DNA from: an uncultured Chloroflexia bacterium
Lineage (GTDB): Bacteria; Chloroflexota; Anaerolineae; Anaerolineales; Anaerolineaceae
Reading direction: 5' to 3'
NCBI GenBank assembly: GCA_963704755.1
Contig: OY969938.1
Location: 3,510,001-3,542,000 of the forward strand
Length of the DNA: 32,000 nucleotides
A program made the position numbers and the translations under genes. The notes beneath the pieces were generated by a model. That model searched no databases. It was given only the letters and a program-made list of their open reading frames with translations, and was not told where the DNA came from. Shown in pieces: positions 17,889 through 32,000 of the stretch (its first letter is position 1; every line of letters begins with the position of its first letter).

Positions 17889-19550
17889 TCAATGCATGAA
17901 ATCAATTACGTTTTGGGTGAAGTCGCAGGCAGAGGGACAGGAGGTGTTCTCCTTGCAAAAGTTGGCGAAGTTGATGTCTTCACCGGCATCATCGATTTTT
18001 TGCAGGCCATCTTTAATACAGCCTGACCCTACGTGATAGTTTGCGATGGCCAGGTCCCACAGGTCTTCGTAGGAGGTCACTTGGCCGGGCTCTTTGCCGG
18101 TCTGGTCGCTGATCAACTGGCCCACCTGCACCGTTTCGGCCTTGAGCACCCGCGCGAGCAGGTCGATCTCCTGGTCGCTGCCGATGGAGCGCAAGACCAG
18201 CCCGCGTAAAACGGCGCGCTGGTCGCTGGTCAGGTTGTAGTAGCCGGCTGCACAGGCGTCATCGCCGTATTCGGGCCGGCAGACGGATAGGAAGCTGCTT
18301 ACATCGGTCACCAGTAACGCGTCCACCCCATTTTCCGAAACGCAGCCCAACCCGTATTCATACGGGATGCCGTTGTCGGACCAGAACTGGCTCTCCTGGG
18401 TGATAATTCCTTTGAGGATTTTGGCCGGGATGGATTGGTCCTGGGCGGCCTGGTAAATGGGCTGATCGTATTGATTTTGCCAGGCCTGGGCGGCGTTGTA
18501 GGCCAGTTCCTCGCCGCAGGTGCTGGCCATGCCGTCGCTCAACAGCCCCTGGGCACAGCCGCTGACACTCACCTTGCCGGAATTGATCAGTTTGCCGGAG
18601 AGATAAAAGAGATGATTGTGGGTAGCCAATTGGCCGGGCGAAGTCACCGGCAGGTAAAACAATTCATCGGGATCGTCCTGGGCCGGGAAAGCATCCCACT
18701 GCAAGGAAGCGAAATCCTGGACGTAGTCCGGCGAAAGAACCTCCAGCCGGTACTGGCCGTTATTGTCCTGCCGGTAAATGTTGCGCAGGTGCAGGGTTTT
18801 GGGCTCGGTCTCATCCCCGTAGCTCGAATCGGCCCAGTATTCCAACCAGATACCCTGGTCGCCGGTCAGGGGCAGGTAAAAATCGCAGCCGTTGGTCCGC
18901 GAGCAGACCGTATCGCGCTGGCCGTCCTGGATGTGGATTTCTTCGATGCGGAAACCATCCAGCGGCTCTTTGGCCGCGAAGTGCAGGATGGGCTTTTGAT
19001 CGCACCACTGCCCGATGGTGCAGTTGCTGACCGCGAAACTCACCTGCGCTGAGGGAAGGGGGACCATTTTGTTGTAAGAGAGGGTGGCTTTGCCCATATC
19101 GACCAGGAAAACGCCGTCGCACTTCGACGAGTCACCCTTGCTGAGCAGGTCGGCGCAGGGTGGCGTGGTGACCCACTTCTGGTAAAGGGATTCGCCGCAG
19201 TAGGCCGCGAAATCCTGCTCGCCGGGAGGGTTATCGCCATCCAGGTAGATGTCACACTGGACGGATTGGTCCTTCCAGGTCTTGACTTCCCACCGGTGGA
19301 CGCTACCGCTGCTCGGCACGCTGTTCCAGCGGCTGCCGGACATGGCCTGGCCGGTTCTAACCAGGCCGGCCGAACCGGCCAGAAAAAGCAAAAGCGCAAC
19401 AACCAGACAGCGCTTCTTGCAAAAAGTCGTTCGATCAATCCCCGGTCTTCTCCGGCCGGCCGGCCGGTTTGGCCCTGGCAGCAGAGATCCGCCGGGAGGG
19501 CTGGCGGGGATCAATCCCGGCGAATACTGGCTGCGTTGGAGGGGTGCCAT
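17889..19550 (-). CDS. Membrane-anchored, Cys-rich protein with C-terminal SLT-like lytic transglycosylase domain
   Basis: 553 aa. Pro/Arg-rich N-terminus, then a TM segment (CLVVALLLFLAGSAGLV). C-terminal region: LKGIITQESQFW...YGLGCVS...LWDLAIANYHVGSG. This matches the SLT pattern (x)QES(x)F...GLMQ...AYNAG, with the catalytic Glu in QES. Confidence 0.6.
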   Translation of the reverse strand: MAPLQRSQYSPGLIPASPPGGSLLPGPNRPAGRRRPGIDRTTFCKKRCLVVALLLFLAGSAGLVRTGQAMSGSRWNSVPSSGSVHRWEVKTWKDQSVQCDIYLDGDNPPGEQDFAAYCGESLYQKWVTTPPCADLLSKGDSSKCDGVFLVDMGKATLSYNKMVPLPSAQVSFAVSNCTIGQWCDQKPILHFAAKEPLDGFRIEEIHIQDGQRDTVCSRTNGCDFYLPLTGDQGIWLEYWADSSYGDETEPKTLHLRNIYRQDNNGQYRLEVLSPDYVQDFASLQWDAFPAQDDPDELFYLPVTSPGQLATHNHLFYLSGKLINSGKVSVSGCAQGLLSDGMASTCGEELAYNAAQAWQNQYDQPIYQAAQDQSIPAKILKGIITQESQFWSDNGIPYEYGLGCVSENGVDALLVTDVSSFLSVCRPEYGDDACAAGYYNLTSDQRAVLRGLVLRSIGSDQEIDLLARVLKAETVQVGQLISDQTGKEPGQVTSYEDLWDLAIANYHVGSGCIKDGLQKIDDAGEDINFANFCKENTSCPSACDFTQNVIDFMH

Positions 19551-19565
19551 GGCTTTCCGCGAGGG

Positions 19566-30746: not shown

Positions 30747-30751
30747 GGCGG

Positions 30752-32000
30752 TTAACTGTTCTTCCCGGTCATATGGGGCATTTCGACGATGGTGACCTGG
30801 TGTTCGAGCGAGCAGACTAACCCGTTTTCCGCTATCCACAGAACGCGGCCCTGTAAGGGCTCGAGCGGTTCTTCCGGGTCGATTTCGTCCACATGCAGGC
30901 GCTCGTGTTCCGGGTCCACCGGGCGCGTATTGAGCTGGACGTCCACCACGTATTTCACCCCCGGCACGCGCTGGATTAGCGAGGAAATTTCGGCCAGGAA
31001 CAGCCCGCGCCCGAAAGGCCAGCCCTCCCAATCGGCAGGCAGCAGTTCGTCGTATTCGCCGCCGGGGATCGCAATCGGCGAGAGGTAGCGCTTGAGGCAG
31101 TTGATGACCCGCGCCTGGACCAGCTCGGGCGAGTTGAAATCATCCACCACGATCTCGACCTGGGCCTGGACGCCCACGTATTTGGGCTCGCGGATCTGGA
31201 TCGAGGTGGTCAGCAGGCGGTATTGGTTGAGGTAGGCTTTGGCGTCTTTGACGAAATTGGAGGGCAGCCCCAGGTTGTACAGGTCGCCGGCCATCAATGA
31301 ATCGGCCACGGACGGCACGACCAGCAGCTCGACCGTGCCCGGCTTGAGCCCGCTGGTTTCGTCCTGGGGCGAGAGGCACTTGACCCGCGCTACGCTGCCG
31401 CTGAAGTTCTTGACCAGCAACTCGTAATCCTGAACCGTCACGGCCCGTTTTTGGGCCTGGAGTTCGCGCTGGGCGCGCATCTTGATCTCTTCCAGGGTCT
31501 CCTGGTCGCGGCCGCCGCTGGCGCGGTGCAGGTTGTTGACCCGCGCGAGGTAGGCATAGGAAGCGGTCAATACCTGCAGTGAGTTTTCAGGCACGTTGCC
31601 CTGCGAGCCGCTGCCGAAGCGGTAGCGGTGGAAGCGCACCCCGCGGCCGTTCTCGGGAATGCGGCCGTACTGGCGGATGGTGCCGTCCGGCTGGCGCACG
31701 GCCGGCCCCAGTGAGACCGTCCCGTTGGCCGGGTCGAGCTTGAAATGGCGGTCGAAAAGGGTCGAATTGGCAAAGCTCTGCACACAGGTCCAGGACACGA
31801 AAACCGTCTCGTCGTTGCGGTTCTCTTCGATTTCCAGAGTCTCGCCTTCTTGCAGCGACAGCACGGGGAAGTTTTGCAGGTGGAACTCCTGGCCCGGGTC
31901 GCCGTTGCTCTGGCCGAGGTGTTCGTTATCCACCACCTGCGAATGAGTGGCCGAAATGGTCACGCCGATCGATTCGGCCGTCAGCGAGACGATGCGCGGG
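30752..32000 (-). CDS. Baseplate J-like protein (T4 gp6 / P2 gpJ / Afp11-Cis11-like), 5' end outside the window
   Basis: The frame is open to base 31999 (PRIVSLTAESIGVTISATH...). Signature: FHRYRFGSGSQGNVPENSLQVL...VNNLHRASGGRDQETLEEIKMRAQRELQAQKRAVTVQDYELLV. This matches the Baseplate_J pattern Y..GgG..GNV...GG.D.Es...R....RAVT..DYE. Confidence 0.85.
   Translation of the reverse strand, partial: PRIVSLTAESIGVTISATHSQVVDNEHLGQSNGDPGQEFHLQNFPVLSLQEGETLEIEENRNDETVFVSWTCVQSFANSTLFDRHFKLDPANGTVSLGPAVRQPDGTIRQYGRIPENGRGVRFHRYRFGSGSQGNVPENSLQVLTASYAYLARVNNLHRASGGRDQETLEEIKMRAQRELQAQKRAVTVQDYELLVKNFSGSVARVKCLSPQDETSGLKPGTVELLVVPSVADSLMAGDLYNLGLPSNFVKDAKAYLNQYRLLTTSIQIREPKYVGVQAQVEIVVDDFNSPELVQARVINCLKRYLSPIAIPGGEYDELLPADWEGWPFGRGLFLAEISSLIQRVPGVKYVVDVQLNTRPVDPEHERLHVDEIDPEEPLEPLQGRVLWIAENGLVCSLEHQVTIVEMPHMTGKNS

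Follow-up and report, generated by a model that had tools for sequence, protein, structure and literature searches.

The stretch of DNA analysed here, the window, is 32,000 nucleotides of contig OY969938.1 (assembly GCA_963704755.1) from an uncultured Chloroflexia bacterium, and all positions below are those of the window. According to the ORF list it contains ten minus-strand open reading frames (ORFs), all co-directional, from 17889 to the window edge. These ORFs make up the distal end of a contractile injection system (CIS) cluster of the Streptomyces type (cytoplasmic, clade IId-like) in an Anaerolineae-type member of the Chloroflexota, with two baseplate genes followed by an array of accessory genes. 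In the order of transcription, this array contains the following features; receptor-binding protein is abbreviated RBP, immunoglobulin Ig, transmembrane TM and repetitive extragenic palindromic REP.

30752..32000, minus strand: Cis11/Afp11-type baseplate wedge gene (Baseplate_J), the 5' third of which lies past the window edge
29781..30746, minus strand: Cis12/Afp12-type wedge protein with a Tail_P2_I domain at residues about 135-310
28682..29800, minus strand: predicted baseplate-periphery adaptor (372 aa) in the tail-fibre position, with an N-terminal domain of the Cis13/Cis19/TssK/phage-RBP 'shoulder' type and a DUF4159 head
27603..28589, minus strand: FHA-short, a soluble protein with an FHA-like domain, a FixG_C-type Ig domain and a Pro-rich tail
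26597..27596, minus strand: f5 family gene, its product with a TM helix near either end and a basic middle part, split by a frameshift
26409..26596, minus strand: AT-rich spacer of 188 nt, peculiar to the source genome
21477..26408, minus strand: FHA-long, a bitopic membrane protein of 1643 aa
20897..21463, minus strand: acidic 188-aa protein (isoelectric point 4.05, 6 Cys) without detectable family
19566..20867, minus strand: Peripla_BP_6 (LivJ-type) lipoprotein, 119.7 bits, passing the cut-off
17889..19550, minus strand: membrane-anchored, Cys-rich extracytoplasmic protein of 553 aa, putatively SLT-like
17735..17860, minus strand: array end, with a REP-like palindrome and a terminator-like hairpin

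The two baseplate genes identify the system. Cis11 scored 54.7 bits against Pfam Baseplate_J, above the curated cut-off, and 230 bits against TIGR02243 at model positions 326-658 of 659, about one third of the gene being outside the window. Cis12 passes the curated cut-offs of both Tail_P2_I (46.5 bits) and TIGR02242 (86.9 bits) and carries an extra, lineage-specific N-terminal extension of about 130 aa. When compared with systems of solved structure, the window Cis11 matched the S. coelicolor CIS (9gtp_1K) with an E-value of 2.3e-56, AlgoCIS with 5.7e-13 and the thylakoid-anchored CIS (tCIS) of Anabaena (7B5H) with 7e-6, and the best match of Cis12 in the Protein Data Bank (PDB) was S. coelicolor Cis12 (9gtp_E, E 1.3e-15). 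Judged by E-values and not by phylogeny, the nearest solved relative is the Streptomyces cytoplasmic CIS, which fits the published placement of Chloroflexota CISs in clade IId together with cytoplasmic Streptomyces systems (PMC12998442). An earlier reading of the window from its letters (the sequence-only reading) had suspected most of these families, and in Pfam/TIGRFAM hidden Markov model searches Baseplate_J, Tail_P2_I/TIGR02242, DUF4159, FHA (in the 1643-aa protein) and Peripla_BP_6 were indeed found above their cut-offs.

The ORF that follows Cis12 had been listed there as an unknown protein, in an array said to hold nothing like a canonical distal gene. Both statements have to be corrected: the gene sits at the tail-fibre position, and its 372-aa product combines an N-terminal domain of the Cis13/Cis19/TssK type with a C-terminal DUF4159 head. 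The head (residues about 185-372; 40.7 bits, passing the cut-off) resembles the N-terminal domain of IFT52, and in a Foldseek search with the AlphaFold2 (AF2) model of the protein (pLDDT 84.8) it matched the DUF4159 crystal structure 4i66 with an E-value of 4e-9. At residues 21-119 the protein aligns with the N-terminal part, which binds the baseplate, of the NCBIfam family CIS13_fam (NF053767), with an E-value of 1.7e-12; a full-length match to this family was not reached and no TM helix is predicted in the window protein, so that the N-terminal domain alone is common. In the Foldseek search this domain also matched TssK (5y0e; E 1.2e-5, probability 1.0, but TMq 0.23 and no sequence-level match), the Cis19 crown trimer of the tCIS (7b5h chains AA-AC, All3314; E 6.5e-5), and receptor-binding and tail-fibre proteins of phages. 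From these CIS13_fam, TssK, Cis19 and phage matches, we read the 372-aa protein as a putative baseplate-periphery adaptor in the tail-fibre position.

The arrangement is widely conserved. An alignment of homologues of the DUF4159 protein was used to scan 185,579 species-representative genomes and yielded 137 relatives, of which we analysed the best 80 loci, with gene order taken from tblastn and ORF clustering and assignments from Pfam. By record title all of these best 80 of the 137 belong to the Chloroflexota, save three that are titled only uncultured bacteria, and they include Anaerolineae, Caldilineae, Ardenticatenales and Ornatilinea apprima P3M-1. The adaptor gene immediately follows the P2_I gene in 80/80 loci. 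In the recurring order, a tube gene, a long gene (600-1100 aa), CIS_tube/LysM, VgrG, PAAR, gp25, Baseplate_J and P2_I lead up to the DUF4159 gene, which is followed by FHA-short, f5 and FHA-long, then in part of the loci by a giant protein with FG-GAP/PKD repeats or a Peripla_BP_6 protein, and in part by the SLT-like gene; a PKMT-like methyltransferase may stand directly behind the DUF4159 gene. Among the 72 informative loci, those with at least 1.5 kb of sequence past the DUF4159 gene, the downstream genes are distributed as follows.

48/72 loci: both FHA genes downstream of DUF4159
9/72 loci: one FHA gene downstream of DUF4159, mostly cut by contig ends
9/72 loci: SLT-like gene directly after DUF4159
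6/72 loci: neither FHA nor SLT-like gene after DUF4159

FHA-family genes are thus found downstream and on the same strand in 57 of the 72 informative Chloroflexota genomes, and every FHA and SLT-like match in the loci is downstream and co-directional. Protein identity among module orthologues is 25-50%, and the genes past the module end are not conserved. The locus L161 reproduces the complete window order up to the binding protein and the SLT-like gene, with f5 as one undivided gene, and its DUF4159 protein is 52% identical to that of the window; in L001, the other closest relative, the Baseplate_J fragment is 71% identical to the window's. Such synteny over dozens of species-level genomes indicates that the arrangement is not a chance neighbourhood, and the accessory genes are kept beside CIS baseplate genes, the FHA genes in 57/72 loci and the SLT-like gene directly in 9 more, as would be expected from the module proposed in the sequence-only reading.

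Several variants of the module were observed. A minimal version, in which the DUF4159 gene is directly followed by the SLT-like gene without FHA genes, occurs in L039, L042, L051, L052, L060, L072, L075, L079, L080 and L083; L080 is Ornatilinea apprima P3M-1, which is listed as a strain and not as a metagenome-assembled genome, and which carries the adaptor and the SLT-like protein. In 23 loci (for example L020:6896-8533) the DUF4159 gene and the first FHA gene are separated by a gene for a PKMT-like protein methyltransferase with Methyltransf, MethyTransf_Reg and PKMT_2nd domains, sometimes present in two copies. In many loci the module closes with a giant FG-GAP/PKD/PD40 protein (>1000 aa) that replaces the binding protein.

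The genes expected upstream of the wedges were checked in relatives. Upstream of Baseplate_J, L001 and L161 encode a gp19 tube protein, CIS_tube/LysM, VgrG, PAAR and gp25. L083, which came from a metagenome scan anchored on VgrG, has a sheath gene, a Pvc16_N cap gene, eCIS_core (DUF4157) and two tube genes upstream, and then the baseplate, DUF4159 and SLT-like genes. With sheath, tube, cap, VgrG, PAAR and gp25 upstream, the relatives encode a complete CIS, and no phage head genes were found in the annotated relatives' loci. The conserved gene order and the full sets of CIS genes found in relatives speak against a prophage remnant.

The second group of conserved genes encodes the FHA and f5 proteins. 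FHA-long is organised as a cytoplasmic FHA domain (residues 20-85), FixG_C-type Ig domains (about 157-340), one TM helix (375-393) and an Ig-rich extracytoplasmic part of about 1250 aa. Its Pfam matches are FHA with 33.3 bits (gathering score 20.7), FixG_C with 28.4 and Big_3_5 with 35.2, in agreement with the FHA/TM/Ig protein described from the sequence alone. Homologues are present in 48/80 loci, always downstream and co-directional. When public data were searched exhaustively with residues 1-420, 2690 representative clusters matched with E <= 1e-3, 197 of them with E <= 1e-30, and the homologues range in total length from about 250 to 4094 aa with variable extracytoplasmic parts. FHA-short has homologues in 58/80 loci and carries an Ig domain that is a paralogue of the one in the 1643-aa protein. 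The earlier description of FHA-short as an FHA-like protein stands at the family level, where a profile of 31 orthologues matches FHA domains in the PDB (EmbR with E 1.3e-4, GarA), and not at the level of the window protein itself, in which no Pfam FHA match was found.

Two small membrane ORFs had been counted between the FHA genes, and these turned out to be one gene. The ORFs at 26877-27596 (239 aa) and 26597-26920 (107 aa) are the two parts of an f5 gene with a frameshift at about 26923-26937; in L001, L002 and L161 the f5 ORF is undivided, with 340-350 aa, and the L002 protein aligns across the two window frames with the switch at the same place. The 239-aa ORF has its TM helix at residues 20-38, and the 107-aa ORF at 76-94. 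Either a true mutation or an error of assembly may lie behind the frameshift. The f5 family is present in 54 loci, and its long versions have VWA and Big Ig domains. These domains and the FG-GAP giants (seen for example at L049:12084-15965 and L023:16226-21136) indicate that the extracytoplasmic parts of the module are highly variable.

In canonical FHA domains, the Arg of a G-R motif and the Ser of an S-x-x-H motif bind phosphothreonine. In FHA-short both residues are replaced, the motifs reading G-T and A-A-Y-H, and in FHA-long G22-S23 and L37-P-Y-H40 stand where GR and SxxH would be; most FHA-long orthologues retain G-R, with Ala or Pro instead of Ser. The window array and the 80 Chloroflexota loci contain neither a Hanks-type kinase nor a PP2C phosphatase. 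Since neither FHA-like domain retains the Arg and Ser that would contact phosphothreonine, and the array encodes no kinase, docking is probably phospho-independent in the source genome.

Three genes remain at the end of the array. The binding protein has a lipobox (VAGC) behind a hydrophobic stretch and follows FHA-long immediately in 11 loci, so it is a conserved module member of a sub-lineage and not the orphan for which it had been taken, although the assignment as a LivJ-type lipoprotein holds. Genes for a cognate permease or ATPase were found neither in the array nor past it in L161, and the ABC genes at 1625-6667 of the window form a separate sugar-type operon on the opposite strand. The 188-aa protein gave no Pfam, NCBIfam, PHROG or PADLOC match and is homologous to a protein of L001 only; the equivalent slot holds 363 aa in L001 (L001:17656-18747) and 527 aa in L161 (L161:17025-18608), and the window protein corresponds to the C-terminal part of these longer proteins of the two closest relatives. 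Neither a family nor a fold could be given to it, and it is a possible cargo or effector candidate.

The 553-aa protein begins with a disordered tail, which is followed by a TM helix at residues 43-60, a pair of beta domains at 75-272 and a helical C-terminal domain. In Foldseek, the C-terminal domain of its AF2 model (pLDDT 85.5) has MltE, MltF and Slt as top matches (E 0.011, probability 1.0, TMt 0.52). An E386-S-Q-F-W390 motif and 12 Cys are invariant across 31 homologues, and four homologues have a precomputed PF01464 (SLT) match, while the window protein itself has no Pfam SLT (PF01464) match. A family profile searched against PDB sequences gave nothing significant (goose lysozyme at E about 1). 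The membrane-anchored muramidase of the sequence-only reading is thus borne out in its anchor, and an SLT-like nature is plausible at the level of modelled fold and motif only. The gene closes the array in L001, L017, L019 and L161.

More distant CIS lineages, taken from the metagenome scan, show a related arrangement. In 6/6 tested loci (L122, L125, L129, L137, L138, L156) a canonical FHA domain is fused N-terminally to Cis12 (Tail_P2_I). In two of them, at L122:14511-18472 and L138:14723-19773, the gene directly after Cis12 encodes a protein that combines a protein kinase domain (Pkinase) and a canonical FHA domain with a FixG_C Ig domain, a single TM helix and an ectodomain of the PLAT or Kelch type; L125 has a double-FHA TM protein instead. 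Several further loci encode Ig-TM proteins behind the baseplate genes, some without FHA. An FHA domain on Cis12 next to a kinase-FHA-Ig-TM protein is a hint of phospho-signalling and, on the basis of these domain architectures, suggests phospho-control of non-T6SS injection systems (T6SS, type VI secretion system) in related lineages. We also considered whether the N-terminal extension of the window Cis12 is a degenerate FHA domain; this was not supported, as hhalign aligned only the P2_I domain of the FHA-Cis12 fusions. In a further distant CIS locus (L152:14701-17886), the gene behind that of the DUF4159 adaptor encodes 658 aa with a FixG_C Ig domain, a single TM helix and SH3_3 but no FHA, which makes it one more variant of the Ig-TM partner.

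As the best-supported reading, we suggest that the accessory genes form a membrane-docking and trigger module for an intracellular CIS, with a probability of roughly 0.6, and that this module would work much as CisA or as TssK with TssJLM, a likeness of function and not of demonstrated descent. An envelope-anchoring or activation module had already been proposed in the sequence-only reading; the adaptor domain, the conserved linkage and the sister lineages with FHA-Cis12 support it. From the domain identities, membrane topology, linkage and clade we infer a set of contacts and a way of triggering. The adaptor would attach through its Cis13/Cis19/TssK-type N-terminal domain to the Cis11/Cis12 wedges and place the DUF4159 heads at the baseplate rim, where it is assumed to assemble as a trimer by analogy with Cis13, Cis19 and TssK. 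The heads could then bind the FHA-like and Ig domains of the 1643-aa protein, FHA-short and the basic loop of f5, and this binding would dock the assembled particle perpendicular to the cytoplasmic membrane. The Ig-rich extracytoplasmic region and the periplasmic-binding-protein (PBP)-type lipoprotein would span the wall and couple an envelope or contact cue to baseplate triggering, and the membrane-anchored SLT-like enzyme may open the peptidoglycan locally at the firing site. As for the direction of firing, which we likewise infer, outward firing as in the T6SS and firing into the producer's own membrane as with Streptomyces CisA carry about equal weight.

A number of observations weigh against this membrane-docking module. 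The sheath, tube and spike genes are not inside the window and would lie past 32000. The CIS13_fam score of the adaptor is 47.3 bits against a cut-off of 370 and covers just model positions 12-112, the fold matches to TssK and Cis19 are local with low TM-scores (0.13-0.27), and the SLT-like call rests on an E-value of 0.011 and a motif. In nine genomes the DUF4159 adaptor occurs although FHA genes are absent, which means that the FHA proteins are not obligatory partners. In the source genome f5 is frameshifted, so that the module may be partly defective or the sequence in error. In addition, CISs of the same broad clade from Roseiflexus and Deinococcota (PMC12998442) and from Streptomyces (PMC12237407) were seen free in the cytoplasm and not bound to the membrane.

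A more far-reaching form of the docking model is that the Chloroflexota have built a membrane-anchored, contact-dependent machine that functions like a T6SS from a particle of the extracellular or cytoplasmic CIS (eCIS/cCIS) type, convergent with TssK/TssJLM and descended from an ancestor with a kinase and FHA-Cis12; this is possible, but we hold it to be well short of an even chance. Its trans-envelope complex, tentatively, would consist of the DUF4159 adaptor, the FHA-Ig-TM protein with wall-spanning Ig stalks and the lytic transglycosylase, and would be non-homologous to TssJLM. Equally tentative is the ancestral state, in which a receptor-type Ser/Thr kinase and FHA-Cis12 may have set docking and firing by phosphorylation.

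A self-directed cytoplasmic CIS, as in Streptomyces, is the next alternative and an unlikely one: here the module would be a stress sensor and recruit particles to the cell's own membrane for regulated cell death, with no outward injection or permanent anchor. The nearness of Cis11 and Cis12 to the S. coelicolor CIS fits this, as do the bitopic topology and the ectodomain resembling a substrate-binding protein (SBP) of CisA (PMC12237407), to which the PBP-type lipoprotein of the module may be compared, and the Chloroflexota and Deinococcota CISs of the clade that were seen free in the cytoplasm (PMC12998442). This explanation overlaps with membrane docking and triggering, differing just in target and permanence. 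The long and variable ectodomains (Ig arrays, FG-GAP/PKD giants, Kelch, PLAT, beta-helix), however, suggest recognition of something outside, and piercing the own membrane needs no peptidoglycan-cleaving enzyme.

We consider it more doubtful still that the cluster encodes a released extracellular CIS, in which the DUF4159 protein would substitute for the tail fibre, the SLT-like protein would be the lysis enzyme and the FHA and TM proteins would regulate lysis or assembly. The DUF4159 protein is indeed in the Afp13 position with an N-terminal domain like those of phage RBPs and tail fibres, relatives encode eCIS_core (DUF4157) and Pvc16_N, which are typical of eCIS loci, and tailocins are released by a muramidase encoded where their tail-like cluster ends. 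However, the nearest solved relatives are the cytoplasmic Streptomyces CISs and not AFP, PVC or AlgoCIS, and the head is a compact flavodoxin-like DUF4159 fold without any fibre or lectin-like domain. The SLT-like protein, stably anchored and with 12 invariant Cys and two beta domains, is unlike phage endolysins, and no holin-like partner is conserved. Release would also leave the cytoplasmic FHA and Ig domains on a bitopic protein beside baseplate genes in 57 genomes unexplained.

An unrelated envelope or adhesion operon that happens to lie beside a CIS or a prophage-tail remnant is very improbable: 0/7 downstream proteins match a curated CIS family above cut-off and the 188-nt spacer with its hairpin divides the array, but no fewer than 57 species-level genomes keep the order and orientation and do not keep the flanking genes, the first downstream protein has a CIS baseplate-attachment domain, the spacer is absent in L001 and L161, and relatives have complete CIS sets (PAAR, VgrG, cap, eCIS_core) with no phage head genes in the annotated loci.

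The array is compact apart from the spacer. The ten co-directional ORFs, all junction distances and both hairpins of the sequence-only reading were reproduced, given two start choices: the FHA-like ORF in its longest form (also 372 aa) reaches 28721, its likely start being M45 (28589), which is backed by alignments, and the Peripla_BP_6 ORF starts at M16. The junctions, all on the minus strand, are the following.

Baseplate_J (stop 30752) to P2_I (start 30746), minus strand: 5-nt gap
P2_I to the 372-aa DUF4159 ORF, minus strand: 20-nt overlap
372-aa DUF4159 ORF to the FHA-like ORF, minus strand: 92-nt gap, given the M45 start at 28589
FHA-like ORF to the 239-aa ORF, minus strand: 6-nt gap
239-aa ORF to the 107-aa ORF, minus strand: 44-nt overlap
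107-aa ORF to the 1643-aa ORF, minus strand: 188-nt gap that holds a hairpin
1643-aa ORF to the 188-aa ORF, minus strand: 13-nt gap
188-aa ORF to the Peripla_BP_6 ORF, minus strand: 29-nt gap, given the M16 start at 20867
Peripla_BP_6 ORF to the 553-aa ORF, minus strand: 15-nt gap

The spacer hairpin (26469-26520) has 21-bp arms at 26469-26489 and 26500-26520, and the gap equivalent to the 188-nt spacer is about 21 nt in L001 and L161. A promoter within the spacer was considered and rejected, as no promoter-like site was called there. At the array end, a palindrome with 25-bp arms (17808-17860) precedes an intrinsic-terminator-like hairpin (17735-17785), the 24-nt arms of which are 96% complementary and are followed by the T-rich tail TTTAATTCTT. 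This palindrome and another intergenic one at 13180-13234 are near-identical, perfect and 53-55 bp long (CCGAATTTGAGGTGT[A/G]TGCGAGGGC...), and the spacer hairpin has the same CCGAAAT/ATTTCGG ends as these two. The palindromes and the spacer hairpin look like a REP-like repeated element of the source genome.

Other identities of the array were tried and rejected. Rfam and ARAGORN returned no structured RNA or tRNA that would mark an integration site; the PADLOC defence-system models gave 0 matches among the eight array proteins, which speaks against a known anti-phage defence system; and PHROGs matched the two baseplate proteins and gave one Ig-repeat match with no others, so that phage genes in the array were dismissed as well. 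The plus-strand part of the window (1-17727) contains ordinary housekeeping genes that are not conserved beside the module in relatives.

Within 1-17727, plus strand: ROK regulator
1625-6667, plus strand: sugar ABC transporter
6667-10260, plus strand: three-subunit molybdenum hydroxylase (xanthine-dehydrogenase family)
10740-12860, plus strand: methyl-accepting chemotaxis protein (chemoreceptor)
13451-15106, plus strand: 7TM-GGDEF protein (diguanylate cyclase)
Within 1-17727, plus strand: Ddl-like (D-Ala-D-Ala-ligase-like) protein and GNAT protein

CISs are sorted by the contact that the baseplate makes with a membrane, as T6SS, extracellular, thylakoid-anchored and cytoplasmic systems. In the clade of the Streptomyces, Chloroflexota and Deinococcota systems, CisA is, to our knowledge, the sole known membrane partner. 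The locus therefore offers a concrete and widely conserved candidate set for the missing link between CIS and membrane in the Chloroflexota, namely an adaptor with a recognisable baseplate-binding domain, FHA/Ig membrane proteins and a predicted wall-cleaving enzyme. The kinase-FHA-TM protein beside FHA-Cis12 in the more distant lineages may add a new regulatory layer, and we did not find phospho-control of a non-T6SS CIS described. If it can be grown, Ornatilinea apprima P3M-1 with its minimal version provides an entry to experiments. The earlier impression that such a module had not been described agrees with searches of the open-access full-text literature, which returned no description of a CIS accessory module of this kind and no paper linking a non-T6SS CIS to DUF4159, FHA or Anaerolineae, a description outside open access being possible.

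The Roseiflexus CIS shares with the window system the phylum and the broad clade IId. For this system (PMC12998442) and for the haloarchaeal T6SS (PMC11566945), the membrane contact was left open or ascribed to a clade-specific uncharacterised membrane protein; the haloarchaeal anchor, Hbor_38620, has six TM helices, and its gene lies upstream of the cluster (PMC11566945). DUF4159, FHA and SLT-like partners are described neither in PMC12998442 nor in PMC11566945.

The Anabaena tCIS has Cis13, Cis19 and an extended Cis12 (PMC8894136; PDB 7B5H). Here, as there, the proteins at the tail-fibre position would be turned to membrane attachment and Cis12 is extended, and the N-terminal domain of the adaptor matches the Cis13 family and, in profile as well as fold comparison, Cis19. 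In contrast to Cis13, which has its own TM anchor, the window adaptor has none and carries a DUF4159 head instead, so membrane contact would be indirect, through the FHA-Ig-TM and two-TM proteins. The CIS clade differs as well, the window Cis11 matching 7B5H with an E-value of 7e-6.

The parallel with the T6SS and the type III secretion system (T3SS) drawn in the sequence-only reading holds in part. The local fold match of the adaptor to TssK and the YscD/PrgH-like architecture of FHA-long are in keeping with it, while a phospho-switch of the Fha/TagH type is unlikely since the phosphothreonine-binding residues are gone. As in the T6SS, a TssK-like adaptor (by fold match) would lie between the wedges and the membrane proteins, with FHA domains at the cytoplasmic face, and the fusion of a Hanks-type kinase to the FHA-Ig-TM protein in sister CIS lineages recalls PpkA, PppA and Fha (TagH). 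MltE, the top fold match of the SLT-like domain, is reportedly recruited for T6SS assembly in enteroaggregative Escherichia coli. Unlike the T6SS, the particle is of the eCIS/cCIS type, the FHA-like domains of the window lack the phosphothreonine-binding residues, the array has no kinase or phosphatase, and no TssJ, TssL or TssM homologue was found among the ten array proteins in Pfam or NCBIfam. The Chloroflexota are thought to be monoderm, and an outer-membrane component would not be needed.

With YscD/PrgH of the T3SS, FHA-long shares its layout, in which an FHA-like domain at the N-terminus lies in the cytoplasm and a single TM helix leads to a large part outside the cytoplasm. The Pfam family Yop-YscD_cpl (PF16697) matches the same residues as FHA with 31.5 bits, under the cut-off of 33.2, and FHA domains of the YscD/PrgH type work without phosphothreonine. 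Unlike YscD/PrgH, the extracytoplasmic part gives Ig-type matches only, with no ring-building motifs, and there are no T3SS genes nearby.

The closest comparison is with Streptomyces. Firing of the Streptomyces CIS requires CisA, a bitopic membrane protein that is encoded just behind the baseplate genes and that outside the cytoplasm has a domain similar to substrate-binding proteins (PMC12237407); the Roseiflexus CIS lacks close homologues of cisA (PMC12998442). As in the Streptomyces CIS, there is no conventional tail fibre in the window array and a membrane protein is encoded behind the baseplate genes; the counterpart of the SBP-like part of CisA would be a separate protein here, the Peripla_BP_6 lipoprotein. 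The likeness to CisA is one of position and topology only, with seven genes here in place of one. In contrast to the Streptomyces CIS, the window system has a Cis13/TssK-type adaptor, FHA-like and Ig cytoplasmic domains, an extracytoplasmic region of 1250 aa and an SLT-like enzyme, and its Cis12 carries the additional N-terminal domain of about 130 aa.

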